Positions 4,863 to 41,088 are shown, numbered from the stretch's first letter. The stretch: DNA of 45,644 bases from a virus (IMGVR_UViG_3300045988_113672); one strand, 5' to 3'. Numbers and translations: made by a program. The notes: generated by a model not told the origin, from the sequence alone.

Positions 4863-4869
4863 GAGAGAT

Positions 4870-15174: not shown

Positions 15175-15195
15175 CAGGTGTGGAGGGCTGCACTG

Positions 15196-20834: not shown

Positions 20835-21200
20835 ATGACGGTTGGTGAGATCAAAAACACGGTGATGTTCCAGACCAACAACGACAGCGACGATCTGGAA
20901 GATTTCTTGCCGTATCTGATGGACTATATCAATGACGGCTATGACCGTCTGGTATATGCCTACACGAAAAAGCACGCATCGCCCATGCTGCACGCCGACA
21001 CGGAAACGCCCGACCTGCCGGAGTGGGCGCATCCAGCGCTGGCTGACTGGGCGACGTGGCTTGTTTACAGGAACGGGAACCCGCAGAAGCAGCAGCGCGG
21101 ATACGCATTTAGAAGCTCCTTTGAGGAAATCCGCACGAAGCTTGTCGAAAACAGTGCGGATGGCTCCCGTGTAGAACACTTTATCAACCTGCCGAGGTGA
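20835..21200 (+). CDS. putative head-tail adaptor/head completion protein
   Basis: Based on position and size only. Confidence 0.3.
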   Translation: MTVGEIKNTVMFQTNNDSDDLEDFLPYLMDYINDGYDRLVYAYTKKHASPMLHADTETPDLPEWAHPALADWATWLVYRNGNPQKQQRGYAFRSSFEEIRTKLVENSADGSRVEHFINLPR

Positions 21201-25155: not shown

Positions 25156-25167
25156 GGAGGGGATTCC

Positions 25168-26010
25168 ATGGCTCTTACCTTCAACGGCAACGCTCCTTCC
25201 GCAGTCACTTACAACGGCCAAAACGTAAAGAAGATCACCTATAACGGCGTAGCTGTCTGGAACGCCATCTCCATTTCCGCGCCGAGCAACCTGCGGGTCA
25301 ACGGCAGCACCAGCAGCACCAGCTCCGCCTGTAAGCTGACCTGGACGGCGGCTACACTCAGCGGCGCTACGGGCACGATCACCTATTATATCTACAAAAA
25401 CGGCTCTCAGGTGGCCACAACCACCAGCACCAGCTATACCTTCTCGCAAAGCACGATCACAGGCTGGAGCGGCGCGTCCCTCAAGGTTCGCGCCTATAAC
25501 AGCAGCGCGGGGTACAGCGCGTATACCAGCGCCGTAACCTTTACCTATAGGGTTTCAAGCACCAGGGTGACGGTTGCGGCCAGCAAGTATGCTACGACGG
25601 ACAATTCATCCTTTGCAAACAGCGGCGGCACCAGCTGCATTGTGGGACGCTCCACGAAGGACAAGCCTGTCGGAACGGCGATGAAATTCAACGCTCCGAC
25701 AGGCGGCTGGTCCCAGTTTAGCAAGGCCGTTCTGCATGTGCAGAGGACAGGCGGCAGCGCTGGCGCGACGGTTCAGGTTGGTAAGCTGGATGTAGCATAT
25801 TCTACAACGCTGTACACGACGGAGTTCTATTACGGGAACTATGACACGTCAATTGGCTCGGCGAGTGCGTCCGCGGCGACAAGCTGGTTCTCGCTCGATA
25901 TTTCCTCGGCGCTACCGTCCGGCAGCGGAGAGCTGGGCATTACGCTCACCTCGACGAACGCCTATGCGGCTGTAGACGGCACGAACGCCTATATCCAACT
26001 GTCGGCATAA
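25168..26010 (+). CDS. FN3-like domain tail accessory/receptor-binding candidate
   Basis: APSNLRV...KLTWTAA...ITYYIYKNGSQVATTTSTSYTF is a fibronectin type III pattern. Confidence 0.5.
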   Translation: MALTFNGNAPSAVTYNGQNVKKITYNGVAVWNAISISAPSNLRVNGSTSSTSSACKLTWTAATLSGATGTITYYIYKNGSQVATTTSTSYTFSQSTITGWSGASLKVRAYNSSAGYSAYTSAVTFTYRVSSTRVTVAASKYATTDNSSFANSGGTSCIVGRSTKDKPVGTAMKFNAPTGGWSQFSKAVLHVQRTGGSAGATVQVGKLDVAYSTTLYTTEFYYGNYDTSIGSASASAATSWFSLDISSALPSGSGELGITLTSTNAYAAVDGTNAYIQLSA

Positions 26011-26022
26011 TTGAAAGGAAAA

Positions 26023-26904
26023 ATGATTGTGAACGAAAAAGCGTTAAAAATCATCGAGGCCGCCAAATCGCAGCTCGGCAATCCCTATGTATTCGGCATG
26101 TGGGGGCGGGAATGCACGCCCTCCGTGCGCCGCCGGTACGCGGGCTACAACCCCAGCCATAAAAGCGCGATCTACAAGGCGTGCCCCGTGCTGAGCGGCA
26201 AGCAGCCCAATTGCGACGGCTGCAAGTGGCAGGGCAAGCTGGCCTTTGACTGCCGGGGCTTTATCTATTGGTGCATCTTCCAGGGCTACGGCTTTAAGCT
26301 CAAGGGCGGCGGCTGCACCAGCCAGTGGGGCTACAAGGTCAACTGGGCGCAGCAGGGCGCGATCGGCGACATGCCCGACCTGGTGTGCTGCGTGTACCAG
26401 TATCGCGGCGGAAAATTCCAACACACCGGCATCCATATCGGCGGCGGCAAGGTGATCCACTGCTCCGCCGGCGTACAGTGGGGCGATACCAGTGATAAGG
26501 CGTGGACGCACTATGCTATCCCCGCTGGCTTGTACACGGCGGAGGAAATCGCGACGGCGGGCAAACCTGACACCAGTAAGCCAACGGAGAGCGTTGTATT
26601 TAATCTTCGCCGTGGAAGCCGTGGCAGCGATGTGACCAATCTCCAAACCGCCCTGAATGCCTTAGGATATGACTGCGGCACTGCTGATGGCATCTTCGGC
26701 GCTGCGACTGAAAAGGCCGTCCGCGCATTCCAGGCGGACAACGGCCTTGTGGTCGACGGCATCGCCGGTAAGGCCACGCAGGCGGCGCTGTACGCGGCTG
26801 AGGGCGTCCCGCGTGCTACCTATACCGTCACCCTGCGCAACGTGCCGCAAGCGGACGCAATCGCGCTTACGGCCAAGTACGCGGGCGAGATGCTCAAAGA
26901 GTGA
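26023..26904 (+). CDS. endolysin: NlpC/P60 peptidase plus peptidoglycan-binding domain
   Basis: DCRGFIYW supplies the catalytic Cys and HTGIHIGG the His. The C-terminal LQTALNALGYDCGTADGIFGAATEKAVRAFQADNGLVVDGIAGKAT is a PG_binding_1 pattern. Confidence 0.85.
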   Translation: MIVNEKALKIIEAAKSQLGNPYVFGMWGRECTPSVRRRYAGYNPSHKSAIYKACPVLSGKQPNCDGCKWQGKLAFDCRGFIYWCIFQGYGFKLKGGGCTSQWGYKVNWAQQGAIGDMPDLVCCVYQYRGGKFQHTGIHIGGGKVIHCSAGVQWGDTSDKAWTHYAIPAGLYTAEEIATAGKPDTSKPTESVVFNLRRGSRGSDVTNLQTALNALGYDCGTADGIFGAATEKAVRAFQADNGLVVDGIAGKATQAALYAAEGVPRATYTVTLRNVPQADAIALTAKYAGEMLKE

Positions 26905-26943
26905 TCTATCAGATCAAAATAAAATGAAAGGTACATAATCATT

Positions 26944-27177
26944 ATGACCGAAGCCATCATCGTAGCCCTGATTACCGGCGGCATCTCGCTGATCGGCACC
27001 CTCGCGTCCACCCGCAGCAGCGCCAAATCCACACAGGCGCTCGTGGACTACAAGCTCAAGGAGCTCAAGGAAAGCGTGGATAGGCACAACAGCATCATCG
27101 AGCGCACGTACAGGCTCGAGGGGAGAATGGAAAATTGCGAACACGATATCCGCGACATCAAGCAGCGGATCAATTAA
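26944..27177 (+). CDS. lysis-associated membrane protein (N-terminal TM plus coiled coil)
   Basis: It begins MTEAIIVALITGGISLIGTLA and continues with heptad-like sequence. It lies between the endolysin and the holin. Confidence 0.4.
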   Translation: MTEAIIVALITGGISLIGTLASTRSSAKSTQALVDYKLKELKESVDRHNSIIERTYRLEGRMENCEHDIRDIKQRIN

Positions 27178-27194
27178 GAAGGGAGCATTATATT

Positions 27195-27494
27195 ATGGAT
27201 ATTACTACGCTTGGCACCGTAACCGCCATCGTCGCCATCTGCTACCTGATCGGCCTGGCCGTTAAGGCCATCCCCAATATCAAGGATAACCTGATCCCCG
27301 TGATCGTCGGCCTGTGCGGCGGTGCGCTGGGCGTTGCCGGGCTGTACCTGATGCCCGAATTTCCCGCCGAGGACGTGATGAACGCCGTGGCCATCGGCAT
27401 TGTGTCGGGGCTTGCGTCCACCGGCGTGAACCAGGTATATAAGCAGATCGCAGTTAAGGGAAAAGAAGAAGAACCGCCCGAAGACCTGGGCTGA
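27195..27494 (+). CDS. holin
   Basis: It is 99 aa with about three hydrophobic segments and a charged C-terminus KGKEEEPPEDLG. ATG 27195 follows GGGAG. Confidence 0.6.
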   Translation: MDITTLGTVTAIVAICYLIGLAVKAIPNIKDNLIPVIVGLCGGALGVAGLYLMPEFPAEDVMNAVAIGIVSGLASTGVNQVYKQIAVKGKEEEPPEDLG

Positions 27495-27508: not shown

Positions 27509-28492
27509 ATGGCTGGTACGATGAGCGCGGCTGATGCGCTGCAAAAGCTGCTTGAGCAGTACAACCAGACTTCCTCTTATGTGCCCAAGACCGCTGACCA
27601 GATCAGGCAGCAGGCGCAGGGCGAATATCAGAGCTACTACGACCAACTGAGGCTTGCCGCCCAGCAGGCGCAGGCGCGCAACGACCTTGCATTGCAGCAG
27701 CAGCGCGAGGGCTTGCAGCGGACGTATGACAAGCAGCGCGAGGCCAGCCAGAAGGAATACGAAAACGCCTATTCCAGGGCTGACCGGCAGCAGTTGTCAC
27801 GCGGCATGCAGCGCTCCAGCTACACGGCGCAGGTGCTGGCGAATCTCACCCAGGAGGGCGCGGAAGCGCAGCAGGAGCTGTGGGATGCGCAGGGCGCGGC
27901 TGAGGGGAACATCGACGCGCAGCGGACGCAGCTTGCGGCGCAGTTGGCTGACCAGCTATCGCAGTACAGCGCCAGCGAGGCGGCTGACGTGCTGGCGAGA
28001 ATCAAGGAGCTGGAGGACCAGGAGTATGACCGCGGCCGTGAAAACGACCAGTACAAGAATTCCCTGTCTGCGCAGATTTATCAGTTCCTCTATCAGGGCG
28101 AGCAGGATAAGATTGCTCAGGATCAGTGGCAGAAGGAATTTGACGAAAACGTGCGCCAGTGGAACGCGCAGTACGGCAGCAAGGGGTCTGGCGGCGGCGG
28201 CGGAAACAACTACAACACCAACAAGGATACCACCGGCAACGGCGGGAACCAGTACACCGATGATACCTTCCTGTCCGACATGAGCCAGGACAGGGCCATT
28301 ACTAAAACCTCTGCCGGTTTGCCTATGCCTGATCTTGGCCTCTTTCCTGACCAAATCAACAGCCTGGGCGGGATCAACAGCGTTAAAAGCAAGCTGAACG
28401 AAGCATTGAAGAACAAAAGAAAGAAGAAAACCAGCACCAACAACGGCGGCGGAGGCGGCGGTCGTTTCTCTCAGGCAATGGTAAGAGACTAA
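27509..28492 (+). CDS. Q-rich coiled-coil protein with G/N-rich tail (candidate internal virion protein)
   Basis: About 230 aa are Q/E/R-rich and heptad-like, followed by GSGGGGGNNYNTNKDTTGNGGNQ and NNGGGGGG. It lies immediately upstream of the giant gene. Confidence 0.5.
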   Translation: MAGTMSAADALQKLLEQYNQTSSYVPKTADQIRQQAQGEYQSYYDQLRLAAQQAQARNDLALQQQREGLQRTYDKQREASQKEYENAYSRADRQQLSRGMQRSSYTAQVLANLTQEGAEAQQELWDAQGAAEGNIDAQRTQLAAQLADQLSQYSASEAADVLARIKELEDQEYDRGRENDQYKNSLSAQIYQFLYQGEQDKIAQDQWQKEFDENVRQWNAQYGSKGSGGGGGNNYNTNKDTTGNGGNQYTDDTFLSDMSQDRAITKTSAGLPMPDLGLFPDQINSLGGINSVKSKLNEALKNKRKKKTSTNNGGGGGGRFSQAMVRD

Positions 28493-28509: not shown

Positions 28510-31500
28510 ATGAGCCAGCTATCTAAGGCTTACGAGAAAAACAAGAAGGTTCAGCAAAGCATTGCAAGCAATCTGCAAGAGGATGAACCCAAGAAGCAGC
28601 TGACTACCGTCTCGATGACGAGCAGCAAGCAGCAGCTCAAGCAGGTATTGCAGGAGCAGAAGCAAAAGGAGAAGAATCCTGTTCAGCGCAAGAACACGAA
28701 AATTGGCGCTTCGCAGTCTCCAAAATTTGTGCGCACTGCCTTCATCAGTCCGGTGCAGCCTATTGTCCGCACGCAGCCGTCCTCGAACCTGCAGCGGCTT
28801 TTGGCGAAGGTTGAGACGGATAACAGTTGGTATTCCGGCAGCACGCCCACCAGAAGCGAGGCGGCGGCGCGTATCTACACGATATCGCAGACTGACCCGG
28901 CGCGGGCAAGGAAGCTGAACCAGGCTTTTTCTCAGCTGCAGCGTGATCCTTCCAGCCAGTTCTACAATCCATACGGTTCTGCCACCAACAAGGCCATCCA
29001 GGAGCTTGCAAACCTTGGCGTGGATATGAGCGGCGGCATTACGGAGGACTGGCTGGCGAAAAATAGCTGGCTCAAAGCCTACTATCGCACCAGCGGCAAC
29101 AGCGGCACTCCCCTTGCGCCCACCAAGAACAGCACTGCCGAGCAGAACGCGGCGTACTACTACTATCAGATTCTCAAGGCGCAGGATACGACCAATCAGG
29201 CAGAAGCCGAGTGGAAGGCCCTGCAGGAGGAGATCGGCTACTGGGCGAACCGCAAGGACCGCAATTACAGCGACGATCAGATCATCAGCAGGATTGACTG
29301 GTCTAAGTACAAGACGCTGGCCAGGATGGACGACGGCGCGGCAAGCGGCGTGCCCCTGACGCTGAACAGCTCCATCGGCTACAGCCAGGACGCGCTGAAG
29401 GGCGTGATCTGGGCGGCGCGCAACGGCAGCACCGGCAACCCGCTGGCTGACAGCGCGAAGGCCGTTTTGGGCGCGGGCAAGACCTGGCAGGAGGACAAGA
29501 AGATCAGCGCGAAGCTCGATCCCAGCAGCAAGGCGTACAGCCCGTACTCCGTGGGCAGCACGCTGGACGATGCGGCGCTGTACTTTGGCGTGGATTCCTT
29601 CAGCAAGGACTGGCTTGAAAACAACCGTAACATTCTGGCCGGCAACGACGCAACGGCCAAGAAAATGTATCAGACGGTGTACAATGCGGAGCAGACCACG
29701 CTGAAGGCCGAGCAGGAGCTGGACGAGCTGCACGCCAGCATTGACCGCTATCTTGAATCGACCACTGACCCGGATCAGATTCTGCGGATGATTGACGGCG
29801 AGTACAAGACGCTGGACAGCCTGGACGAGAGCATGCGAGAGGGCAAGCTGATAGGCACGACCCGCGCGATCGACTACCGCAAGCAGGATATCGAGGCCGA
29901 GGTACGCCGTCGCTGTCTGGCCAAGAATACGCAGATCAACGGCGCGGACTATGTGGGCGCTGTGTGGAAGCTGCTGGGCCTGCCGGAGGTAAAAACCGAG
30001 GCCATTTCGGCTGTGGGCGCTTCCCGCGATAACGCGATCAACGCTGGCGGCGCGACCATTGCGGACGCTGGCACGGACGAGGAAAAGACCGTATTTAAGA
30101 CTGCGTACAGCAGCGATTTTGACACCTATCTGACGCAGATCAAGGGCGCGATGGATAGCGGCGTATCCGACCCGCAGGGCGGCTATGACTACACGCTCAA
30201 GCGCGCTGACCAGTATGCGGCCGAAAACTACATGGACGCGATGGACACCGTTTTGACCTACGAGGAAGCCCAGCAGGCCAAGGATGAAGCCATCAGGAAG
30301 CTGAACGACCTGGGCGTTGTCTACGATGAAGACGGCAACATCGACATGAGCAACCGCAAGGGCAGCCTGATTGTGCCGGGCGCTGATACGGCGATGGCTG
30401 CTGCCGGCATGAGCGATGCGCCAAGAAAGCTGCGCAAGACCAGCGATGATACGGCTGATGAGATCGACATGCTGCGCAAGGAGATTGCCAGCGGTTATGG
30501 CAAGGACGAGAAGGGAAAGCGCGTAAAGCTGACGGATGAGGAAATCGAACTAAAGCATTCTCAGCTGCAAGCGCTGCTTCATCCCGAAGCCATCACTGCG
30601 ACGCAGAAGGAGATCAACCAGCTGCTGGCCGTGGTGGACGAAAGCACCGAGACCATGGAGCGCACACAGAAGTCCTATGATAAAGCCAATATCACGCTGA
30701 AGAACATCACCGAGGGCTATTCGGTTGCCGACCGGATGCAGGCGCTGACCGGCGTGAAGGCCGGCGACAGCGATTCCACCCTGGCGCAGATGACTTATCT
30801 GTTCAGCATTGCGCGCAACTATGAGCCGACCGAATATCGATCTGCCAACCTGTATGCGCTGGCCATGGACGGGCAGGGCGCGACCTACGAGGAAACGGCG
30901 GCGGCTGCCAGGCAGGGCATGGCGGAGAACAAGCAGATGATCGAGCAGATCAATTTTGCACTGGGCGAGCTGGAAAGCAAGGGCGCGCATCTGCCGGATG
31001 ACAAGATGGAAAACGTCAAGCGTTATGTCGCTGCGCTTGAGCGCGACGTGCAGGACGCTGAATATTTTCTTTTGCGGGAGAACGACGATTACTACCAGGA
31101 GTCGCAGGACGTAAGCAACGAGATTTTTGCGGCCTGGCAGGATTATAACGAGCTGAACCCGCTGGGCATGCTGAACCCATTTGCCGACCGGAAGGGCTAT
31201 ACGGCGCTGGATAACGTGGTGGCAATCCGGCTTGAACAGCTGCAAATGGAGGAAGCCAGCAAAACCATTGGGCGGAACCTGAAATCTGACAAGGTGATCA
31301 TGTCCACTGGCAACCCGGCGAAGGACGGTTATTACACAGAGGATATTAACCAGCTCAGCAAAAACGAGTGCATGACCTACCTGTACATTCGCGGCAAGGA
31401 GGGCGTGGACGCTGCGCAGGAATACTACGACCATTTGACCAACGCGGAGTACGGCGTAATCAACATGCGCCGCAATCTGGACTGGACGGCGAAGGCGCAG

Positions 31501-34500
31501 GAATTTGCGGATCAGAACGCTGTGACCGGCGCGCTTGCTTCCGCGCTGACCGTCATTGCTTCCCCTCTTACTGTGGGCGGCATGGTGGAATCGATCAAGG
31601 CTGATGTGCTGGGGCAGGAGCTTAACCCCTACGCGCGCGGCTTTGTGTACGGCAACATGAGCGGCACGGCGCGTGCGACGGTCAAGGAGAATATCTCCGA
31701 ATCTGTCGGCGGTGGCGCCGGCGGATGGCTGCTGGGTGCGCTGTATGACGCTTTGATGAGCTACGGCGATTCGATGGTGAGCAGCTACTTCATGGGCGGC
31801 CTGGGTTCTGCTGCCGGTTCCGGCGCTGGCAAGCTGCTGGCAAAGACAGGGCTGACCGAAAATTATGTCAATCTCGCGTCCAATGTGGTATCTTCCTTTG
31901 TGACGGCTTCCGGCCAGGGCATGCAGGCGGTTGGCAACGCCATGATGGACGCAAAGCTGCGTGGCGCGACCCCCGACGAAGCGCGCGTACTTGGCCTTGT
32001 TACCTTCCTGGCTGAGACCGCGACGGAAGCGATCGAGGTTGAGACCATCGATTCTGCCATTCACGGCGGCGCTGAACGGGAATTCAAAGACACGTTCAAG
32101 AAGCTGCTGTTCAACATGTTCAACGAGGGCGCGGGCGAGGGCGTATCCGAATTGGTGGAGGGCATGGCCGACAAGGTTGTGATGGATTACAAGTCCAACT
32201 GGGCTGAATCCGTACAGCGCTATATTGACGAGGGCATGACCAAGAAGCAGGCCGAAGACGCAGCCTGGAAGGAGATCCTGTGGAACGCTGCGGAAGCGGC
32301 GGCTGTTGGCGGAATCTCTGGCGGCCTTGGCACCGGCCTGGGCTATGTACAGGGCCGTATCTTTGGCGATGGCAGCCAGACGCAGGACGCTGTGCAGCCA
32401 ACTGCCGAGACCGTGCAGCAGACGCAGCAGACCGCGCAGGAAACCGTCCAGCAGACCGCACAAGAGCAGACCCAGCAGGAAGCCCCGACGATTGCGCAGG
32501 AGACGCAGAACGCCGATGTGGAGAATGCTGCGCCTGAGACCGCAGAAGCCGCCCAAACGCCAAATACAAAGGAAGAAACGCAGCCCTTTGACACGGGCGA
32601 ACGGCTGACGCAGTATGAGGTAAATGAAAAGACCGTGCGGCAGGTGACGGCGCTGACTGCATCCCTGGAGGCGGACGAGGCCAGCCAGACGGCGACCATC
32701 GGCGCGGCGCTGTTGGGAGATAACGCGACCCCGCAGGAAACGGCCTTTGCCTCCGCGGCGGCGCAGCACATGACCGACACCCTGGGCAGCGACGCGGCTG
32801 TGCGGTTTACCCGCGACGTGCTGCTGCTGGACAGCGACACCAACGGCGTGCGCGCGGCGCTGACTGTTGCGGCGCTGAACAAGGGCGGGAACGCCAGCCA
32901 GGTTGCGCAGCGTATGGCGCAGGAGGGCGTAACGGCTGAGGGCATTCAGGAGCTCAAGGCGGCGGCTGACCTCGATGTGCAGGACGCGAACGTGACCGCG
33001 CAGATGCAGCAGACCGTGCAGGAGAACCAGGTGGCATTGCGCACGGCGCAGCTGATTGGCGACGGCGCGCTGAAAGCCGTACAGCCCTACGAGACGGCGG
33101 TTGCCCAGGCGAAAAGCGTATTGCGCCAGGCTCAGGGCGAATTGCGCAGGCAGGTAAAGCGCCGGGAAGGGCTTGGGCAGAATCTCCTATCTTTACAGGA
33201 ACAGATCAACAGCGGCACGGCGACCCCGCAGCTGCTTGATACCTTTAGATCGACCGTCAAGGACATTGAAGGCCAGATCAAGGTTGTAAACGAGTACACC
33301 CAGCGCGTGGCCAACGCCGAGCAGTCGCTGCACGACGCGCAGAACCAACTGGACACTGTACGCGACGATACGCTGCGGCAGGTACGCCAGCAGGCGCAGC
33401 AGGACGTGGCCGACATGCAGGCGCAGCAGCTTGCGGAGCAGGAGGCGGCGAAGGCTGAACAGGCGCAGCAGGCCGAAGCACAGGAAAAGACCGGCTATCA
33501 GAAGAAGCAGTTTATCCCCTATGATGGCCCTGTCCCGCAGACCGTTGACAATGTGCAGCAGGAAACCGTCGCGATTGACGATGCAAGCTATGCGCAGGTG
33601 CAGCAGATTGTGGAGGATGCGCAGGCGGATTCTGAAACGAAATCTGGCGTGCGCAGCCTGGTCAAGAGTGCGTTGCGCGCTGTGTTTGGAAGCCGATTCG
33701 ATCAAACGCAGGTAACAGTAGACAACGTGCAGTTTGACGGCCAGCCGTATACCGTGACGCTGTTCAAGAATCTGATCAACAAGGTAGTTTCCGACCCGAA
33801 CATGACAACGGAAAAGCTATCGGTGCTAAGCAACATAGAACAGGTCCTCAAGAACGCAATATATGAAACAAGCTCCGATGTTGACAGGAGTCGGCAAAGC
33901 AAGGAACGTGTTGTAAGGTACGATTACCTGTCCTCGCGCACAAAAATAAACGGCCAGGATTACAATGCAATCCTTACCGTTGAAGCGTATGACTATCAGA
34001 ACAAGATGAAAACCTATCGTCTTGAAAACATAGAAATGACGCCTGTCGATTTCCCGTCCGCCACCGGTTACGCACCGGCGCTCGCAGAAACCGACCAGAA
34101 CCAGGTACAGTATCGGTTACGTACCGACCCTCCGGATTCCGTGGCGTCTTCTAATAGTATATTAGCATCCGATGCCGAAAATGTCAATACTGAAAATATT
34201 TCTAATTTGGAATCGCTGAACGATGCGAATGTGCAGGCTTCCTACGGCGTTCCCGGCGTAACGAGCACTGGCAAGAGCGGAACGACCGGCGCAGTTGTTA
34301 GCCCCATCGTGACCGCGCAGAATCTTGCCAAGTCGCTCGGCGTAGGCATGACGCTTGGCACGCGCAAGATGGATACCGGCAGCACGAAGATACCCAAGGC
34401 GGTGCGTGGATATTACGAGCAGAACGCAAAGTATATCGCTGTGCGCTCCAACGAGGCGAGCAGCTATGCGGTAACGATGCACGAAGCCGGGCACGCCATT

Positions 34501-37500
34501 GCAGATAAGATTGGGCTGACCGGCACGCAGGAAATGGTGGATCGGCTGAACCCTGTATTCGCAAAGAATTATAATGCGCAGCAGCTTCCCGGTGAAGCCT
34601 TTGCGGAGTTTGTCAGTTTGTACATGCGTGATAGTCGTATGGCAGAAGAATTTGCAGGCAGCGACTTTATGCGTACGTTTGAATCTGCACTGCGCCGCGC
34701 AGACATTGACAAGGCCGTGCATCAGGCGCGCGACCAGATTCAGACATATGCCGCTGCCTCCACGCTGGACAGAGCCAAGGCCGGCATTATCGATCAGGCC
34801 GATGCGCAGCGCAAGGACAGCATGGCTGAAAAACTTCGCGACTTTGTGACGAACGTTGCCGACTGGACGCGCCCGCTTGAAGACGTGGACAAGGCTTTTG
34901 CGGCCAGCAACGATGGCCAATACGGAAACGTGAGGCAGACTGCCAAGAAGCGCAACTTCGCTGACAGAATCGTTGAAAGCCTGTTCACCAACGCCATGAC
35001 CAACGCTGACCATACGATTATTGGCGAGAGCTTCAGTGCGGCCTTTGAAGGCATTGATGGCAAAAATGCAGATGACTTTATTACCTATGGCCTGCTTAAA
35101 CACTCCCTGAGCAGAGATGTGCAGGGAAAGCAGGTGTTTGCCAATGACCTGACGCACGATCAGCGCGTTGAAGCTGTTCGGCAGATTGAAGAAGCCAGCC
35201 CGCAGTATAAGGAAGCCTTAGATAAGTTTGAAAAAACCTGGCATCAGTTTATGCAGGCTTGGATGGTGGATACAGGTTATCTATCTCAGGAAGCATTTGA
35301 CCGCATGAACGAGATGTATCCCTACTGGTTGCCAACCGTCCGTGCGCGCGAAGGAAAGGTGCGCGGCGGCGGTAGGCGCGGCACGTTTACAATCCACCAG
35401 GCTACCGGCAGTGATCTGCAAATTATCAACCCCATTGACACGATTGCCAACTATGTAACCCGCATCGTGGACATGAATCTGCGGAACAACGTGGCGATTG
35501 CCTTTGACGAGGCATACCAGACCAGCAATGGCATGGGCATTTGGGCGCGTGAGATTACGCAGGATATGCGCAGAACGGCAGTTAACACCGAGGACGTGCA
35601 GCAGCGCGTGAACGACATTCTGTCTGAAGCTGACATAGACACAGACGTGATCGGCAATGTGCTTGAAGCCATCGGCCAAGAAGCGGTTAGCTGGCAGGGG
35701 ACAAACACCAGCACCGAAGGAGATACCCTGTGCGTGGTACGCCGTGATGGCACGAATGCCTATTACCAGTTTGACGCGGACGGGCGGGCGATCTATGAGG
35801 CCCTGACTGGCAACGGCAAGGCGGTTCATTCCGAGACCCGACGCGCCCTGAAAGCATTCTCGAACGTCACGTCCTTTGTCAGTAGAATGGCGACGACATA
35901 TGCTCCGACCTTTGCCATGACCAACCCCATCAAGGACTTGCAAAGCAGTATTTATCACGGCTCCTGGGCCAGCAACTATTTGACCGGCATTGTGAAATGG
36001 TTTGTGTCAGCCTACGAAGTAACCACGAATAGCCAAGGCGTGCAGGAGTACAAAGCGCAGGGCGGCGGCGGATGGAATCAGATTCAGACGGGCTTCCGCA
36101 AGGGCGCAGACGAATACCGCGGGAAGCTGTTTGAAGGTTACTGGAAGCGTGATGCAAAGAGCATTGCAAAGCACATCGGAGAGACGGCGCTTGACGTGGT
36201 GACGCTGGACAGGCTGAATGATATCATTGAAACCGCATCGCGTTACGCCGAATACCGTTTTGGCAAGCATGATCTGAGCACGCCGGAAGGACGCGCGGAA
36301 GCGTTCCAGGCGGCGCAGGATGTTACCACCGACTTTGCGAATGGCGGCAAGGGCGCAGGCGTTCTGATTGCACGCAGCATTATGCCGTTCCTCAACCCCA
36401 ATATTCAGGGCACTTATCGTGCGAGCCTTGAACTGAGCGGGCGCGAGCGCGGACGGCTTGGAGCCAGAATGACCAAGCGCATCGTAAACACGATGTTCCT
36501 TTCTGCCCTTGCATCTGTTATAAGAGCGCGTTTTGGCAGCGACGAAGATAAGGATTTGTACGGTCGAATTTCTGACGGCGTGAAGACTTCCAACCTTATT
36601 ATTCCCAACGTCTTCAATCGTGACAGCGACAGGCGCTTTGTCCGTATCCCTATTTCGCAGGACCCCTTGGATCAGGCGCTATATACGCTCACCACGTCCG
36701 CCATTGACGCTTACAACGGAGATGATGACTTCATCACGGAGCTGCTGGCCGGGGCAAGTCAGATCGTTAGCAACGTAACGCTGGGCGCGTCCGATCTCCT
36801 ATCCGAAGGCAGCCTGCCTGAACGCCTGAACGGCTTTATGCAGGGCACTATCTTTGGGCCTGCATGGGGCCTGATTACCAACCAGACCTACTACGGCGGC
36901 AAGATCGTGGGCGATTATCTGGACGAGCTTAGTCCTGTATCGCAGTACGACGAGACCACCAACGATATGTTCATCTGGCTGGGTGCGCGCCTGGGCGTAT
37001 CGCCGAAGCGGCTGGAATACCTGTACGATCAGTATACTGGCTACGCTGGGCAACTGCTGATGGCTGTTACTGACGGAGATAACGCGCTCAAGACAACGGT
37101 AAATACATTCCATAAACGCCTTACGATTGATCCGGCGTATACGAACGACATTTCCAGCGCGTATTCGGACAACAAGGCGTTTATCAGTCAGCTGCAAAAG
37201 ACGATTTCGAAAACCGGCACTGACGGCAAAATGCTGCGTAGCGGCCTGACCGAGGATGAACGTTCGCAGGCATACGAGGAAATCAAGGCCATGAACAAGA
37301 AGGGCGGTCTGCTGAAGGATACCAACGATCAGATTTCTGAGCTATGGAACGAGATTCACGCTGTGCAGGACGACGAAACAAAGACCGAAGCTGAACGGAG
37401 AACGCTGATCCTTCAGTATCGAGATCAGATCACCGATTTGCAGTTGAGTTTCAACGAACAGTTTGGACAGTTCCAGGCAAAGTACGTAACCGGTGAAAAC

Positions 37501-37893
37501 CCGTTGACGAAGATGCTGCTTGACCCGCAGAGCGTGAGCGCCTATACCGCGTATGATAAGCTGGATGATACGTTCAAGTCCGATGAGGATAAGGCGTACA
37601 TGCAGCTTGCGCGTGCGGCGTGGGAGAAGACCAAGAACGCAAGCGCGCTGCCGCATCCGAACAGCGATTTTAGCGTCAACGAAACGACCTATGAAATCGG
37701 CGATGACGACTGGCAGGCATACACGGCGGAATACAAGCTGGCCTACTCCGACTACCTGCTCAAGAACTCCGCAAAGTGGACCATCCTGTCGGACAGCGAA
37801 CAGGTTGAATTGCTGAAAGAAGCCCACAAAAAGGGGCATGAAGCAGCGAAGAAGTGGTACATGGCCAAGTACGGAATAAAGGAGAAGCGATAA
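28510..37893 (+). CDS. giant 3127-aa polyvalent-type protein with an HExxH zincin motif and a Gly-rich hydrophobic core
   Basis: It is a single uninterrupted ORF. HEAGH lies at aa 1991-1995 (nt 34480-34494) with a downstream GEAFAEF. A Gly-zipper/TM-like region lies at about nt 31500-32350, and a Q/T-rich linker at about 32380-32580. Confidence 0.85.
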   Translation: MSQLSKAYEKNKKVQQSIASNLQEDEPKKQLTTVSMTSSKQQLKQVLQEQKQKEKNPVQRKNTKIGASQSPKFVRTAFISPVQPIVRTQPSSNLQRLLAKVETDNSWYSGSTPTRSEAAARIYTISQTDPARARKLNQAFSQLQRDPSSQFYNPYGSATNKAIQELANLGVDMSGGITEDWLAKNSWLKAYYRTSGNSGTPLAPTKNSTAEQNAAYYYYQILKAQDTTNQAEAEWKALQEEIGYWANRKDRNYSDDQIISRIDWSKYKTLARMDDGAASGVPLTLNSSIGYSQDALKGVIWAARNGSTGNPLADSAKAVLGAGKTWQEDKKISAKLDPSSKAYSPYSVGSTLDDAALYFGVDSFSKDWLENNRNILAGNDATAKKMYQTVYNAEQTTLKAEQELDELHASIDRYLESTTDPDQILRMIDGEYKTLDSLDESMREGKLIGTTRAIDYRKQDIEAEVRRRCLAKNTQINGADYVGAVWKLLGLPEVKTEAISAVGASRDNAINAGGATIADAGTDEEKTVFKTAYSSDFDTYLTQIKGAMDSGVSDPQGGYDYTLKRADQYAAENYMDAMDTVLTYEEAQQAKDEAIRKLNDLGVVYDEDGNIDMSNRKGSLIVPGADTAMAAAGMSDAPRKLRKTSDDTADEIDMLRKEIASGYGKDEKGKRVKLTDEEIELKHSQLQALLHPEAITATQKEINQLLAVVDESTETMERTQKSYDKANITLKNITEGYSVADRMQALTGVKAGDSDSTLAQMTYLFSIARNYEPTEYRSANLYALAMDGQGATYEETAAAARQGMAENKQMIEQINFALGELESKGAHLPDDKMENVKRYVAALERDVQDAEYFLLRENDDYYQESQDVSNEIFAAWQDYNELNPLGMLNPFADRKGYTALDNVVAIRLEQLQMEEASKTIGRNLKSDKVIMSTGNPAKDGYYTEDINQLSKNECMTYLYIRGKEGVDAAQEYYDHLTNAEYGVINMRRNLDWTAKAQEFADQNAVTGALASALTVIASPLTVGGMVESIKADVLGQELNPYARGFVYGNMSGTARATVKENISESVGGGAGGWLLGALYDALMSYGDSMVSSYFMGGLGSAAGSGAGKLLAKTGLTENYVNLASNVVSSFVTASGQGMQAVGNAMMDAKLRGATPDEARVLGLVTFLAETATEAIEVETIDSAIHGGAEREFKDTFKKLLFNMFNEGAGEGVSELVEGMADKVVMDYKSNWAESVQRYIDEGMTKKQAEDAAWKEILWNAAEAAAVGGISGGLGTGLGYVQGRIFGDGSQTQDAVQPTAETVQQTQQTAQETVQQTAQEQTQQEAPTIAQETQNADVENAAPETAEAAQTPNTKEETQPFDTGERLTQYEVNEKTVRQVTALTASLEADEASQTATIGAALLGDNATPQETAFASAAAQHMTDTLGSDAAVRFTRDVLLLDSDTNGVRAALTVAALNKGGNASQVAQRMAQEGVTAEGIQELKAAADLDVQDANVTAQMQQTVQENQVALRTAQLIGDGALKAVQPYETAVAQAKSVLRQAQGELRRQVKRREGLGQNLLSLQEQINSGTATPQLLDTFRSTVKDIEGQIKVVNEYTQRVANAEQSLHDAQNQLDTVRDDTLRQVRQQAQQDVADMQAQQLAEQEAAKAEQAQQAEAQEKTGYQKKQFIPYDGPVPQTVDNVQQETVAIDDASYAQVQQIVEDAQADSETKSGVRSLVKSALRAVFGSRFDQTQVTVDNVQFDGQPYTVTLFKNLINKVVSDPNMTTEKLSVLSNIEQVLKNAIYETSSDVDRSRQSKERVVRYDYLSSRTKINGQDYNAILTVEAYDYQNKMKTYRLENIEMTPVDFPSATGYAPALAETDQNQVQYRLRTDPPDSVASSNSILASDAENVNTENISNLESLNDANVQASYGVPGVTSTGKSGTTGAVVSPIVTAQNLAKSLGVGMTLGTRKMDTGSTKIPKAVRGYYEQNAKYIAVRSNEASSYAVTMHEAGHAIADKIGLTGTQEMVDRLNPVFAKNYNAQQLPGEAFAEFVSLYMRDSRMAEEFAGSDFMRTFESALRRADIDKAVHQARDQIQTYAAASTLDRAKAGIIDQADAQRKDSMAEKLRDFVTNVADWTRPLEDVDKAFAASNDGQYGNVRQTAKKRNFADRIVESLFTNAMTNADHTIIGESFSAAFEGIDGKNADDFITYGLLKHSLSRDVQGKQVFANDLTHDQRVEAVRQIEEASPQYKEALDKFEKTWHQFMQAWMVDTGYLSQEAFDRMNEMYPYWLPTVRAREGKVRGGGRRGTFTIHQATGSDLQIINPIDTIANYVTRIVDMNLRNNVAIAFDEAYQTSNGMGIWAREITQDMRRTAVNTEDVQQRVNDILSEADIDTDVIGNVLEAIGQEAVSWQGTNTSTEGDTLCVVRRDGTNAYYQFDADGRAIYEALTGNGKAVHSETRRALKAFSNVTSFVSRMATTYAPTFAMTNPIKDLQSSIYHGSWASNYLTGIVKWFVSAYEVTTNSQGVQEYKAQGGGGWNQIQTGFRKGADEYRGKLFEGYWKRDAKSIAKHIGETALDVVTLDRLNDIIETASRYAEYRFGKHDLSTPEGRAEAFQAAQDVTTDFANGGKGAGVLIARSIMPFLNPNIQGTYRASLELSGRERGRLGARMTKRIVNTMFLSALASVIRARFGSDEDKDLYGRISDGVKTSNLIIPNVFNRDSDRRFVRIPISQDPLDQALYTLTTSAIDAYNGDDDFITELLAGASQIVSNVTLGASDLLSEGSLPERLNGFMQGTIFGPAWGLITNQTYYGGKIVGDYLDELSPVSQYDETTNDMFIWLGARLGVSPKRLEYLYDQYTGYAGQLLMAVTDGDNALKTTVNTFHKRLTIDPAYTNDISSAYSDNKAFISQLQKTISKTGTDGKMLRSGLTEDERSQAYEEIKAMNKKGGLLKDTNDQISELWNEIHAVQDDETKTEAERRTLILQYRDQITDLQLSFNEQFGQFQAKYVTGENPLTKMLLDPQSVSAYTAYDKLDDTFKSDEDKAYMQLARAAWEKTKNASALPHPNSDFSVNETTYEIGDDDWQAYTAEYKLAYSDYLLKNSAKWTILSDSEQVELLKEAHKKGHEAAKKWYMAKYGIKEKR

Positions 37894-37895
37894 CC

Positions 37896-38090
37896 ATGCG
37901 TTTTGACCGCATCCATCAATCCAGCATCGACGCGGCCGAGGCAGCCTACGGGCTGACTGACGACGAGCGCGAGGTGCTGTCCCTGTCCAGGCGCGGGAAA
38001 TCTGTTGTCGCCATCGGCATGGAGCTGGGCATGAGCACCCGAACCGTCAGCCGCCGCAGAGCGGACATCAAGCGCAAGATCAACATCTGA
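37896..38090 (+). CDS. small LuxR/sigma-r4-type HTH protein
   Basis: LTDDEREVLSLSRRGKSVVAIGMELGMSTRTVSRRRADIKRKI. ATG 37896 follows AAGGAG, 2 nt after the giant gene's stop. Confidence 0.65.
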   Translation: MRFDRIHQSSIDAAEAAYGLTDDEREVLSLSRRGKSVVAIGMELGMSTRTVSRRRADIKRKINI

Positions 38091-38094
38091 CACG

Positions 38095-38121
38095 GCCCCC
38101 GCAAGGGGGCTTTTTATTTTT
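38095..38121 (+). terminator. intrinsic terminator
   Basis: GCCCCC-GCAA-GGGGGC followed by TTTTTATTTTT. Confidence 0.85.
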
Positions 38122-38133
38122 GTAAAAAATGTG

Positions 38134-38162
38134 TTGACAATATCCCAAATCGATGCTATTAT
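38134..38162 (+). promoter_or_regulatory. near-consensus sigma-70-type promoter
   Basis: TTGACA (38134-39), a 17-nt spacer, then TATTAT (38157-62). Confidence 0.7.
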
Positions 38163-38313
38163 AACAGCGTCGGGAGACAATCCCGATGTCAGGAGAGCAA
38201 TCCCCTGCTGAATTGAAACAGTGTTAGTATCAAGATGATGAACTTTTGAAAAAAAGTATCGGAATCGGAAAATAGTCCTGCAGCAATGCGGGGCTGTTTT
38301 TTTATTGCCCAAA

Positions 38314-38341
38314 TGGCGCGAAACTGGCGCGAATGTGGCGC
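38314..38341 (+). repeat. three direct TGGCGC(GAA) repeats at 11-bp period
   Basis: The sequence is aaaTGGCGCGAAacTGGCGCGAAtgTGGCGCttt, in the leader of the 38411 gene. Confidence 0.7.
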
Positions 38342-38410
38342 TTTTACCTCCGTGTTTTGTGCGACAATCAGCACACCGGGAACCCCGGAATAACACAAGG
38401 GAGGATTATC

Positions 38411-38986
38411 ATGGACGTTGAATACACTCGCAGAGGCCAAGGCAATCTGAATACTGTGCTTGGCGCAATCGGAACGGCTGGCGCTGTTGGCATTCTGAAC
38501 GGCGGACTGGGCGGCTTGTTTGGCGGCGCGCGCAATGTGAACGTCAACGGCGAATGCAGCGAAAATCACCTGGTTGATCGCTATGAAGCTTCTCAGCAGG
38601 CAAAAATCGCCCAGCTTGAGACCGAAATTAAGCTGCGCGACAGCACCATCTATACCGATCAGAAGAGCCTTGCGCTGTACCAGTACATTGACGGGCAGAT
38701 CAAGGAGATTCGCAGCGAACTGTCCGATCAGCGCGTACACAACCAGCGCACTGAGGATAGCTTTGTCCTGGCGCGTCAGGATCTGGCTACCGTTAAGGCC
38801 GAGCTGGACGGCAAGATCAAGATGGAAGCCGAAAAGCGCTGCTGCGGCGATAACTCCATCGTGACCTATGCAAACGCCACCTTCTACCCCAAGCAGGTTG
38901 CTGACGTGACCGTAGGCACTGCCACAACCGCGCAGAGCACCTACAATCCGCTGCCCAAGTGCGGCGATTGCTGTGGCAACAACTGA
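38411..38986 (+). CDS. hypothetical protein: Gly-zipper N-terminus, coiled coil, Cys-rich C-terminus
   Basis: ATG 38411 follows AAGGGAGG. It contains LGAIGTAGAVGILNGGLGGLFGG, then a coiled coil, and ends ...CGDCCGNN. Confidence 0.7.
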   Translation: MDVEYTRRGQGNLNTVLGAIGTAGAVGILNGGLGGLFGGARNVNVNGECSENHLVDRYEASQQAKIAQLETEIKLRDSTIYTDQKSLALYQYIDGQIKEIRSELSDQRVHNQRTEDSFVLARQDLATVKAELDGKIKMEAEKRCCGDNSIVTYANATFYPKQVADVTVGTATTAQSTYNPLPKCGDCCGNN

Positions 38987-39047
38987 CAAAAGCGGGGGGG
39001 CTGGCGCTGACCGGCTCTTCCCGTTTTTCTGATTGGAGGATTACGTA

Positions 39048-39395
39048 ATGGTTAGTATTGAGACCATAGAGCGAGGCCTTGCGCAGTATATCGACGCTGA
39101 ATTGCTGCCTAAATTGCCGCAGGACGGCCTTAAGGGCTTTGGCGTGCGGTCGATGGCTACGGCTATTGTAATGCGCGGGGGACGGCTCCTGAGCGCCTAC
39201 GCGACCTGGAAGCCTGCGCAGATCATGGGCGCTATTACGCCTGACGGCGCAGTTGATATAGATTTTTTGCGCGATGTTTTCAAGGGCGGCATCCAGCAGG
39301 GCGGCCAGAAAATTGATTTGCCGCTTGGCGTGTCGCTGAGAATTACGCCTGAGGATGTAGATCACATATACAGCTACATCATGCAGGCGCAGTAA
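39048..39395 (+). CDS. hypothetical protein (115 aa)
   Basis: ATG 39048 follows GGAGGA. Confidence 0.6.
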   Translation: MVSIETIERGLAQYIDAELLPKLPQDGLKGFGVRSMATAIVMRGGRLLSAYATWKPAQIMGAITPDGAVDIDFLRDVFKGGIQQGGQKIDLPLGVSLRITPEDVDHIYSYIMQAQ

Positions 39396-39405
39396 GGAGG
39401 AAATC

Positions 39406-39714
39406 ATGAAAGAACTGAAAGAAGTCATCCGCGACATCGGGGAAATCCTGGACAGCGCGGAGATGTACGCCAAGGAAGCCGTCAAGCACAAGACGCAGTA
39501 TCCTTCCCTGGCAGGCGTCTATTGCCGCATCGCGCAGGACGATCTGTCTCACGTCGATATGCTGCATAAGCAGGCCGTTGAGATGATTGGTGAACAGAAG
39601 CGCTCCGGTGCGACCGTCCCCGAATCCATGCAGGCTGTGTGGGATTTTGAGCACGAGCGCCAGATCGAGGACGTGGCGGACGTGAAGCGGCTGATCGATA
39701 TGTACAAGGAGTGA
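39406..39714 (+). CDS. hypothetical helical protein (102 aa)
   Basis: The ATG follows AAGGAGG. The sequence looks all-helical and has H/E/D pairs. Confidence 0.6.
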   Translation: MKELKEVIRDIGEILDSAEMYAKEAVKHKTQYPSLAGVYCRIAQDDLSHVDMLHKQAVEMIGEQKRSGATVPESMQAVWDFEHERQIEDVADVKRLIDMYKE

Positions 39715-39717
39715 CAA

Positions 39718-39764
39718 TTAGTCATAGCGTTAGTCATAGAAATTAGTCATAGCGTTAGTCATAG
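39718..39764 (+). repeat. four direct TTAGTCATAG repeats (candidate integrase arm-type sites, P arm)
   Basis: Copies lie at 39718, 39730, 39743 and 39755. Confidence 0.65.
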
Positions 39765-39791
39765 CAGAACTTAATGAAACCCAAGCATAAG

Positions 39792-39828
39792 AAAAACCCC
39801 CGATTTCGTACTGAAATGGGGGCTTTTT
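39792..39828. terminator. bidirectional intrinsic terminator
   Basis: AAAAA-CCCCCgATTTC-gtact-GAAATGGGGG-cTTTTT. Confidence 0.8.
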
Positions 39829-39837
39829 CGGACATTT

Positions 39838-39887
39838 TGGTCGAGGTGACAGGATTTGAACCTGCGACCTTTTGGTCCCGAACCAAG
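39838..39887 (-). other. attP core: 3' 50 nt (positions 27-76) of a tRNA-Pro(CGG) gene
   Basis: The reverse complement is CTTGG-TTCGGGA-CCAAA-AGGTC-GCAGG-TTCAAAT-CCTGT-CACCTCG-A-CCA. No D-arm or 5' acceptor strand lies upstream. G72/A73 are typical of bacterial tRNA-Pro. Confidence 0.8.
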
Positions 39888-39924
39888 TCAAACATGTTGA
39901 TATTGCTAATATTTTTAACAATGA

Positions 39925-39945
39925 TTAGTCATAGATTAGTCATAA
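39925..39945 (+). repeat. two further TTAGTCATA(G/A) repeats (P' arm)
   Basis: Copies lie at 39925 and 39936, in the same orientation as the four on the other side of the core. Confidence 0.6.
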
Positions 39946-39966
39946 TGTTTTTCGGGCGGTTTGGTA

Positions 39967-41088
39967 TTATATCAGGTCTGTGATGGCGCGAAGAGATTGA
40001 ACGTCCTCGCTCTGATAGTATTTTGTCATGGATGCGTCGGCGTGGCCCATCAGGGCGGCCTTGTCCGTGTCGCTGCCGGGGACGGCCTTGAGCAGGTTGG
40101 CGAAAGTATGTCGGCAGGAATAGGGCGTTCTGTCGGCGATACCCAGCTTTTCCATGGCAGGGACAAAGCAGAACTTGCGAAAGTATTCTTCGGTCATCCG
40201 TGTGCCGTCAGCGCGTGGGAACAGGTATTGACTGCTGTCCGAAAGGCGATCCTGCATGATCTGCGCCAGCTTTGGCGACAACGTGATCGTGCGGTCTGTG
40301 CCTGCCTTGGTTTTGCCGCCGCCGATCAGGGTATTCGACTCTGGATTGTACGCGGCCTTTTTTAAGTTGAACATCTCTGTAGGCCTAAAGCCTGTGTAGC
40401 ACATAAAGTAGATATAATCCGCATAGAGCACCGTTCCGACGGCGCTTTTTATTTTGTCCAATTCGGCCAGCGTAAACGCCGGGCGCGTGCCCTTCTTTTC
40501 CTTGCCCGTGTGCAGGTGGGCGGAATACACCTTGTCGATGATGTCATTGTCGTAGGCATATTTGCTGAGCAGGCCGGCGATTGTTCGCATGTCCTCTTTT
40601 GTCGATTTTCCGCGCGGGCAGTTGTCTATGCACTGCTGCCAGTCCTCTGTTTTGATATCCCTAAATTGTACAAAATGCAAAGCCTCGAAATGCTTAAAGG
40701 CGCACTTATAGCAGGACAGGGTTTGCTTGCCGATTCGTCCCTCATAGGTGGGCAGCCATTTGTCGTACAGGCCGATCAGCGTAATGGCGCTCTGGTTGGC
40801 GCGCTGCCCCTTGAGCGTGCTGCAATAGGCAAGTGCTTCCGTCTTGGTCTTAAAGCCGCCCTTTGTGCGGTATTTCCTGCGCTGGACGCCGTCCTTGCCG
40901 ACGTACACGCCAAGCGTTACCTGCGCTGTCCAGGTCCTGCCGTTCTTAAATGCCGTCCCGGTGCCATTGCCGCGCGTCTTCACGCCCTTTGGCTTTACCT
41001 CCTGTCGCATCCCGCACCAGGGGCAGAACGGCGCGCCGTCCGGGATTGCGCCCTTGCACTTTTTGCATTCCATGGCGTTTTTCTCCAT
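39967..41088 (-). CDS. int: tyrosine integrase with an N-terminal zinc ribbon
   Basis: CKKCKGAIPDGAPFCPWCG forms the zinc ribbon. The C-terminal catalytic signatures are ...YSCRHTFANLL...LMGHADASMTKYYQ. Confidence 0.9.
   Translation of the reverse strand: MEKNAMECKKCKGAIPDGAPFCPWCGMRQEVKPKGVKTRGNGTGTAFKNGRTWTAQVTLGVYVGKDGVQRRKYRTKGGFKTKTEALAYCSTLKGQRANQSAITLIGLYDKWLPTYEGRIGKQTLSCYKCAFKHFEALHFVQFRDIKTEDWQQCIDNCPRGKSTKEDMRTIAGLLSKYAYDNDIIDKVYSAHLHTGKEKKGTRPAFTLAELDKIKSAVGTVLYADYIYFMCYTGFRPTEMFNLKKAAYNPESNTLIGGGKTKAGTDRTITLSPKLAQIMQDRLSDSSQYLFPRADGTRMTEEYFRKFCFVPAMEKLGIADRTPYSCRHTFANLLKAVPGSDTDKAALMGHADASMTKYYQSEDVQSLRAITDLI

Follow-up and report, generated by a model that had tools for sequence, protein, structure and literature searches.

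The viral sequence IMGVR_UViG_3300045988_113672 (45,644 nucleotides (nt); the window, that is, the whole stretch of DNA analysed here, with positions counted from its first letter) carries a giant open reading frame (ORF) of 9384 nt, about 20.6% of a circular phage genome of ~45.5 kb, which encodes a protein of 3127 amino acids (aa) and about 345 kDa. An earlier note, made from the sequence alone, had already remarked on a single 9.4-kb ORF occupying about 20% of the genome, and our coordinates agree. Our analysis shows that this giant protein consists of three recombining modules, of which the middle effector module and the C-terminal block are exchanged like cartridges between near-identical phages. 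Its domain content supports its assignment to the phage-type polyvalent proteins, among the giants of podophages that bear an LPD38 block. We consider it probable that it is an encapsidated scaffold that is ejected from the virion together with an exchangeable effector.

The giant ORF is a real, intact gene under purifying selection throughout. Its ATG is preceded, 7 nt upstream, by a GGAGG ribosome-binding site, full-length homologues of 3112-3134 aa (84-96% identity) occur in independent assemblies from the European Nucleotide Archive (ENA) and Logan, and comparison with the relative L024 gave a ratio of non-synonymous to synonymous substitution rates (dN/dS) of 0.15 for the whole gene, with no 250-codon block reaching 0.3. 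Because intact homologues of the same length recur in independent assemblies of different samples and dN/dS is uniformly low, the ORF is not an artefact in which several genes were fused through assembly or sequencing errors, as the earlier note had allowed for. Nothing but the unusual length of the ORF speaks for such an origin, thousands of family proteins of 2100-4800 aa have the identical end-to-end architecture, and we give this explanation practically no credence.

Modular exchange within the giant protein

The three modules are an N-terminal scaffold (aa 1 to ~1633, made up of an all-alpha domain, a Gly-rich block and a helical linker region), a swappable effector slot and a conserved C-terminal block (Table 1). 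Their borders are visible in the DNA. Homology to the slot variants L022 and L003 stops at position 33407 and resumes at 34231, and homology to a variant with an alternative C block is interrupted between 34234 and 37879, where the replacement extends over 34235-37878. The flanks are 92-98% identical in both comparisons. The left junction lies inside a low-complexity linker rich in Q, A and E, with a hydrophobic-poor stretch at aa 1626-1668, and the modules differ in GC content (0.595 in the N scaffold, 0.511 in the slot and 0.543 in the C block).

Five main slot states were found when they were counted among 99 close relatives. The slot holds a 338-aa module without Pfam match in 42 of them, LPD3, as here, in 35, a RelA/SpoT-like domain in eight (E 1.6e-5, just under the cut-off) and ddrB-ParB in seven (E 2.6e-36), and is empty in five. 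The compact module of ~120 aa at nt 33700-34050, for which an LPD identity had been guessed tentatively, is Pfam LPD3. In more distant relatives the cargo of the slot is MuF_C/PBECR3, LPD3 with a Zeta toxin, or ART-PolyVal with a Zeta toxin, and almost none of 171 distant members shares aa 1700-1900. The 338-aa cassette, which is the most common alternative, has no sequence match in Pfam or the Protein Data Bank (PDB); an initial impression that it might be a GNAT found no support. A Pfam search with 12 of the longest distant members identified nothing beyond LPD38, Zeta toxin and AAA_33, and most of the modules inserted in this family lie outside Pfam.

The C block also exists in three states: the allele present here, a second allele 57% identical to it, and an unrelated block of ~890 aa found in proteins of ~2800 aa. 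Slot states and the two unrelated C blocks occur in combination. In L023 (15734-18415; P0061-type alleles) the ~890-aa block stands in place of the whole zincin and LPD38 block. It contains Gly-rich hydrophobic segments, and searches for a Pfam match, an HExxH motif or a relative in GenBank phages were negative. We also considered that it might be a divergent LPD38 block, but rejected this, as the hhalign probability is 1.8% and HExxH is lacking.

The conserved C-terminal block and its zincin

Where the earlier note had seen ~900 aa of conserved-looking sequence at the C-terminus, our searches delimit a block of ~1220 aa. The conserved unit around LPD38 appears to be about 1000-1200 aa long and obligately C-terminal. 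A search with aa 1930-3127 returned 3243 clusters (at 50% identity) at E <= 1e-3, 500 of them at E <= 1e-30; of 122 full-length representatives (2103-4768 aa), 112 have at most 30 residues beyond the end of the block, and LPD38 was found in all 12 long distant members scanned. The AlphaFold model of the block is mostly helical, with a mean per-residue confidence (pLDDT) of 69. No analogue was found in the PDB, either by profile search or with Foldseek (best E 1.2, noise), and the sequence of the whole giant protein gave nothing significant there. Against BFVD, Foldseek returned 57 matches to the C block at E <= 1e-3 (best E 1.4e-27), which are C-terminal pieces of phage LPD38 proteins.

The block opens with a zincin-like metallopeptidase domain. 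Among 25 homologues of 30-67% identity, no columns are invariant except H1991, E1992, H1995 and E2029, each of which is kept in about 94-97% of 147-151 aligned homologues. The zincin proposed earlier from the motif HEAGH...GEAFAEF therefore stands as far as its HExxH...E site is concerned, but the Pfam model MPTase-PolyVal has no match in the giant protein and matches one of the 25 homologues at E 0.051. The best PDB match of the zincin profile is a Pro-Pro endopeptidase of the lethal-factor type (M34; 6fpc_A), at a weak E of 0.0036; the alignment runs through HExxH and E-x-F-A-E and covers the active-site helices only. Pfam ATLF is matched by four of the 25 homologues (best E 2.5e-4), all below the cut-off. 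Polyvalent MPTases have been linked to lethal factor (Iyer et al., 2017; PMC5512222). In the model of the whole block, confidence is low for the residues immediately upstream of the HExxH helix, in which the beta-sheet of a zincin would be expected. Pro-Pro motifs as possible cleavage sites proved uninformative: there is one PP (aa 1874-1875, in the linker between slot and C block), against 1.8 expected by chance.

The N-terminal scaffold

A long helical N-terminal region had been predicted, and the AlphaFold model of aa 85-600 is indeed all-alpha, with pLDDT above 90 over aa ~115-475. This N-terminal domain is shared by up to 109 of the 171 more distant family members, the Gly-rich block by about 70 and the helical segment rich in Q, A and E by about 60. 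The domain has no structural analogue in the PDB (Foldseek best E 1.3, noise), and its profile matches none of the giants of phages phi24B, Vibrio FGH and Bacillus Pascal. A tblastn search of the phage collection with the N-terminal 1700 aa found no match and hence no relative of the N scaffold there, and the genome collection, when first scanned with this scaffold, also yielded none.

The Gly-zipper motifs of the following block lie where they had been reported, but the hydrophobic character attributed to this block is weak beyond aa 1008-1026. This 19-residue window (Kyte-Doolittle 1.69) is the only one hydrophobic enough for a classical transmembrane helix, and the remainder is rich in Gly, Ala and Ser without being strongly hydrophobic. 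Insertion of this block into membranes is only weakly suggested. The linker rich in Q, T and E that had been placed at about nt 32380-32580 was found there with slightly wider limits (Table 1); Q, E and T make up 51% of residues 1301-1400. About 85% of the giant protein, including aa 1-1650 of the N scaffold and most of the C block, is left uncovered by Pfam and LPD models.

Relation to known giant phage proteins

LPD38 is listed as confined to those polyvalent proteins that are of phage type (Iyer et al., 2017; PMC5512222). Like these (PMC5512222), the protein studied here is a giant polypeptide with LPDs and a probable zincin, encoded beside virion genes, and its alleles carry ddrB-ParB, ART, Zeta, MuF_C/PBECR and RelA/SpoT-type modules; it differs from them in that its own allele has no MuF head-morphogenesis domain, MPTase-PolyVal is unmatched and most of its length lies outside Pfam and LPD models. 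It combines LPD3, the zincin and LPD38 with at least two further conserved domains that are not annotated. The polyvalent architecture put forward in the earlier note is supported by the Pfam search advised there: LPD3 and LPD38 score above the Pfam curated cut-offs, and domains of the polyvalent network, among them MuF_C/PBECR3 in distant alleles, occupy the same slot elsewhere.

The profile of the C block matches the C-terminal ~890 aa of the giant proteins of phi24B (E 1.5e-44), Vibrio FGH (E 9.7e-67) and Bacillus Pascal (gp19, E 5.6e-43). Vibrio FGH and Bacillus Pascal are lytic podophages without lysogeny genes, and in both the homologous giant gene ends the virion module. In the Shiga toxin (Stx) podophage phi24B, gp47 (vb_24B_48, 2807-2811 aa) is homologous over its C-terminal ~890 aa, including LPD38, and its gene likewise closes the block of virion genes, towards the end of the prophage and at the end of the record. 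It was found in purified virions but is invisible in the reconstruction, and its authors propose an encapsidated ejection protein, suggesting a peptidoglycan-degrading role for its peptidase (10.64898/2026.04.10.717836). In contrast to the protein studied here, gp47 belongs to a phage of a Gram-negative host, its N-terminal two thirds consist of LPD5, LPD1 and a MuF-C peptidase, and the zincin part of the C-block profile (positions 1-176) is unmatched.

The only relative with a loss-of-function phenotype is PTXU04_00025 of Escherichia phage PTXU04, which was shown by CRISPRi-ART to be critical for efficient infection (10.1101/2023.09.18.558157). Foldseek matched the predicted structure of its C-terminus to our C-block model (E 1.3e-23, template-modelling (TM) scores 0.50/0.54). 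However, it has 2198 aa with LPD38 as sole annotation, comes from a lytic coliphage and has no tblastn match at E 1e-5.

Ralstonia and Burkholderia phages are also among the tblastn matches of the giant protein. In JC1 gp69, a homologue of Bcep22 gp75, LPD3 is followed about 1000 aa later by LPD38 (PMC9144972). The order of the two domains is thus the same as here, and the JC1/Bcep22 gene likewise takes up about 22% of its genome and adjoins lysis genes. These DarB-like proteins of Burkholderia and Ralstonia podophages differ by a lytic transglycosylase, a DNA methylase and an SNF2-type helicase, all undetected in the giant protein. Bcep22 gp75 is reportedly associated with the virion. Searches with the whole giant protein at E <= 1 and with segments of it at E <= 10 found no methylase or helicase family, so it is not DarB-like.

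The C-terminal domain of N4 gp50 consists of a zincin of ~250 aa with HExxH and a mostly helical domain of ~1100 aa without structural homologue (PMC13434306). This virion RNA polymerase (vRNAP) of the Schitoviridae is also a giant ejected protein of the beads-on-a-string type, and its layout of a zincin and a large helical domain resembles that of the C block. On the other hand, it contains an RNA polymerase domain, and no polymerase family matches the giant protein, which is not a vRNAP of the N4 kind. Profiles of the C block, the zincin and the N-terminal domain gave no match to N4 gp50, and the N4 structure is absent from the fold-search results. Homology between the C block and the N4 domain was not detectable (hmmsearch not significant, hhalign probability 0.2%), leaving an architectural parallel only. 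We also rejected a tape measure protein as identity of the giant protein: its gene comes after the lysis genes, it matches no tape measure family, and genes for a tail tube or chaperone are missing.

Compared with these systems, the novelty is limited. It comprises the host group, an N scaffold that is specific to the lineage and holds an unrecognised domain, the DUF7934 protein as a conserved partner, cartridge exchange at the population level, and the length and C-terminal position of the conserved unit around LPD38.

The late operon, the phage and its host

The late transcription unit ends with the giant ORF followed by the GerE gene. Neither a promoter nor a terminator was found between the late genes and the giant ORF, where gaps are 15-17 nt, and the first strong terminator of the late region comes directly after the GerE gene, which starts 2 nt past the stop codon of the giant ORF. 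The neighbourhood described in the earlier note is the one we find: endolysin and holin precede the pair formed by the giant gene and its upstream neighbour, the Q-rich upstream protein belongs to Pfam DUF7934, and the LuxR-type helix-turn-helix (HTH) gene 2 nt downstream matches GerE (Table 1). The GerE gene is present in most relatives and absent from L025 and L026. The DUF7934 gene lies directly upstream of the giant gene in every relative examined, close and distant, and the pair ends the late genes also in relatives of only 37-56% identity. In L025 (8652-9989) and L026 (8626-9981) the DUF7934 protein is longer, 445-451 aa, and carries an N-terminal PG_binding_1; these fusions suggest that the partner may act at the cell wall.

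Family searches of the late-gene proteins found no tape measure, sheath or tube family, and no GenBank phage matched the late region at the nucleotide level. From its genes, the phage is predicted to be podovirus-like, short-tailed and temperate. One close relative sits as a prophage within a bacterial contig of 252 kb, and because a gene flanking it is 99-100% identical to genes in genome bins of uncultured gut Clostridia, we assign the host to that group.

Table 1. Features of the window and of the giant protein.
Feature	Position (nt)	Strand	Residues (aa)	Remarks
Primase/helicase	4846-7791		981 aa	phrog_8841, E 3e-137; main recognisable replication gene
Large terminase	15178-16599
Portal	16596-18422
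Major head protein	19282-20511
SU10-type adaptor	20835-21200			SU10_adaptor, 28.7 bits (cut-off 27)
504-aa protein	21207-22721		504 aa	Weak 'internal virion protein' match (phrog_511)
Tail-fibre protein	23800-25155			PTR repeats
Endolysin	26011-26904			NlpC/P60 and PG_binding_1
Holin	27135-27494
DUF7934 protein	27509-28492	+	327 aa	Q-rich, helical; Pfam DUF7934 E 5.8e-13
Giant polyvalent protein gene	28510-37893	+	3127 aa + stop	ATG start; GGAGG ribosome-binding site
Conserved N-terminal all-alpha domain	28807-29949	+	~100-480	No Pfam model covers it
Gly/Ala/Ser-rich, partly hydrophobic block	31357-32409	+	~950-1300
Gly-zipper motif	31708-31746		1067-1079	GGGAGGWLLGALY
Gly-zipper motif			1096-1107	GGLGSAAGSGAG
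Gly-zipper motif	32302-32346		1265-1279	AVGGISGGLGTGLGY
Q/T/E low-complexity linker	32365-32619	+	1286-1370	Hydrophobic-poor
Conserved helical Q/A/E-rich segment	32632-33474	+	~1375-1655	Ends in the left recombination junction
Swappable effector slot	33408-34230	+	about 1634-1907	LPD3 cassette here
LPD3	33709-33999	+	1734-1830	Pfam E 5.5e-9, 36.7 bits (cut-off 27)
Conserved C-terminal block	34231-37890	+	1908-3127 (~1220 aa)	Zincin and ~1000-aa mostly alpha-helical region including LPD38
Zincin-like metallopeptidase domain	34282-34809	+	~1925-2100
HEAGH	34480-34494			Sole HExxH of the giant protein
GEAFAEF	34591-34611
LPD38	36553-37077	+	2682-2856	Pfam E 8.9e-20, 72 bits (cut-off 27)
GerE/LuxR-type HTH gene	37896-38090	+	64 aa	Pfam GerE E 2.3e-8
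Intrinsic terminator closing the late operon	38094-38111	+		GGCCCCCGCAAGGGGGC then TTTTTATTTTT
Near-consensus sigma-70-type promoter	38134-38162			11/12 matches, extended-10 TG
Integrase	39967-41088	-

Several further observations concern the rest of the genome. The ends of the window overlap, positions 1-63 matching 45493-45555 at 97%, and the genome is therefore circularly assembled, with a length of about 45.5 kb. A tandem array of about 12 or more 24-nt units lies at 45325-45644 and 1-~150; it encodes 8-residue repeats, S-A-[T/K/R]-V-[T/E/K]-A-[Y/W/N/R]-x, in an ORF that crosses the window ends. The circular assembly is cut inside this repeat gene, and the number of repeats may be unreliable. 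A tRNA-Tyr gene (anticodon GTA) is located at 347-422. In place of the 981-aa primase/helicase, the distant relative L025 has a family A DNA polymerase and a D5_N-type primase.

Beyond the terminator of the late operon (38094-39983), the promoter listed in Table 1 heads three small genes (38333-38986, 39033-39395 and 39406-39714). The small genes between the late operon and the integrase have no family match, and those at 38333-39714 might constitute a moron, a unit expressed in lysogeny; the region from 38.1 to 39.4 kb is not conserved in otherwise close relatives. The tail-fibre gene and its neighbours (24344-26946) are mosaic among phages that are otherwise 92-98% identical: identity there falls to 79-84% or vanishes, and relatives have collagen-like or CBM_5_12 modules. 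At 5663-7196 of L025, a reverse transcriptase (RVT_1) lies beside a Phage_tail_APC gene, just upstream of the endolysin, and is probably part of a diversity-generating retroelement acting on a tail protein.

Proposed role and alternative explanations

A role in ejection is the best supported reading, because no tape measure was found among the late genes and the C block is homologous to phi24B gp47. According to this model, the giant protein would be made late, from the penultimate gene of the operon that serves virion formation and lysis, packed in the capsid and expelled via the short tail with the DNA or just ahead of it. The conserved C block, probably together with the DUF7934 protein, would serve encapsidation and passage across the Gram-positive envelope, while the zincin would process the polyprotein or cut a target in the envelope or the host. 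The cargo of the slot would act in the first minutes of infection on host defences or physiology. Inference here covers packaging and ejection of the protein, its proteolytic processing, any function in a membrane or as a conduit, and the action of the cargo against defences as well as the targets of that cargo. The earlier idea of an ejection protein for a tape-measure-less virion gains from the failure to find a tape measure and from the homology of the C block to a protein detected in virions.

Several points weigh against this model. All of the argument for packaging comes from homology of the C block, and sister alleles of ~2800 aa lack the zincin and LPD38 block in an otherwise near-identical phage. 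These alleles are the main difficulty for the model and speak against a strict need for the block, unless its replacement is a functional analogue; either the replacement has an equivalent function or the N scaffold carries the core function. The giant gene is located after the lysis genes and not among the head genes, and PHROGs and NCBIfam searches with the whole giant protein returned no family. The MPTase-PolyVal model is unmatched, and M34 peptidases are linked to the zincin only weakly (E 0.0036). No structure has been solved that is analogous to either of the scaffold domains, so that the fold reveals no biochemical function, and a channel role is speculative, with one possible transmembrane segment only.

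The same modularity could indicate that the giant protein is accessory cargo for anti-defence or host takeover, packaged and injected like P1 DarB or T4 Alt, with no part in DNA delivery and dispensable on permissive hosts. Polyvalent proteins have been interpreted in this way (Iyer et al.; PMC5512222). The effector-like cassettes of the slot (ddrB-ParB, RelA/SpoT-like, Zeta toxin and ART-PolyVal) fit such a function, their fast turnover between near-identical phages would be expected in an arms race, and even the whole zincin and LPD38 block is replaceable. However, about 2800 of the 3127 residues form a conserved scaffold under purifying selection, the position of the gene is constant in every relative, and the PTXU04 relative is critical for efficient infection. 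Moreover, apart from the weak phrog_511 match of the 504-aa protein, no other obvious set of ejection proteins was recognised in the genome. We therefore regard a purely accessory function as unlikely. A role mainly at the cell wall, in entry or lysis, with the zincin as a hydrolase of peptidoglycan or surface proteins acting together with the DUF7934 partner, appears very unlikely as the principal function. The gene does come after endolysin and holin, the partner carries PG_binding_1 in two distant relatives, and among solved structures the zincin comes closest to a Pro-Pro endopeptidase. Pro-Pro endopeptidases cleave surface proteins of Gram-positive bacteria. The authors of the phi24B study also suggested peptidoglycan degradation for the peptidase of their protein. 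Yet the zincin makes up only about 175 of the 3127 residues, Pfam detected no cell-wall-binding or lysozyme domain in the giant protein, and the similarity to the endopeptidase is limited to the active-site helices (E 0.0036). Activity at the cell wall is in any case compatible with the ejection model and not exclusive of it.

The earlier note had also kept in view a toxin or defence protein expressed by the lysogen. A moron of this kind, acting as a toxin, in superinfection exclusion or in defence, would agree with the location of the gene towards the integrase end of the prophage and with the toxin-type domains (Zeta, ART and RelA/SpoT-like) of some alleles. But there is no promoter-like site between the late genes and the ORF, which has its own ribosome-binding site and is separated by gaps of 15-17 nt; no terminator precedes the end of the GerE gene, and the unit beyond it begins with a strong promoter of its own. 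Lytic podophages devoid of lysogeny genes carry homologues at the same place, in the virion module, the homologue in phi24B was found in virions, and neither a signal peptide nor an immunity gene was identified. Lysogenic expression is thus disfavoured, and we find it scarcely credible.

Returning to the ejection model, it is tempting to extend it further. The giant protein and its DUF7934 partner could be the whole ejection apparatus of a podophage of Gram-positive bacteria: a delivery chassis in which a fixed N scaffold and a fixed C block, either the present one or its alternative, would bring the protein into the capsid and over the envelope, with a standardised bay between conserved low-complexity linkers where co-circulating gut phages would trade cartridges by homologous recombination. 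The C block could then be a widespread ejection machine, possibly with an ancient relationship to the C-terminal domain of the N4 vRNAP. We offer this extended version tentatively and consider it rather doubtful in its entirety.

Implications

Giant polyvalent proteins are common in phages and almost none has been studied. The gut phages described here provide a natural experiment, in which near-identical backbones share all but the middle cartridge or the C block of a 345-kDa protein, and the conserved and exchangeable parts of a giant protein become separable. The N-terminal all-alpha domain and the ~1000-aa block containing LPD38, which is found in more than 3000 clusters, are candidates for structural work, both being without a solved structure. 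Our results do not overturn current views; they add an uncultured host group to the range of a class already described, and they document the modularity of that class at the population level. If packaging and ejection are true, the architecture suggests that chosen proteins might be loaded into phage particles for gut Clostridia.

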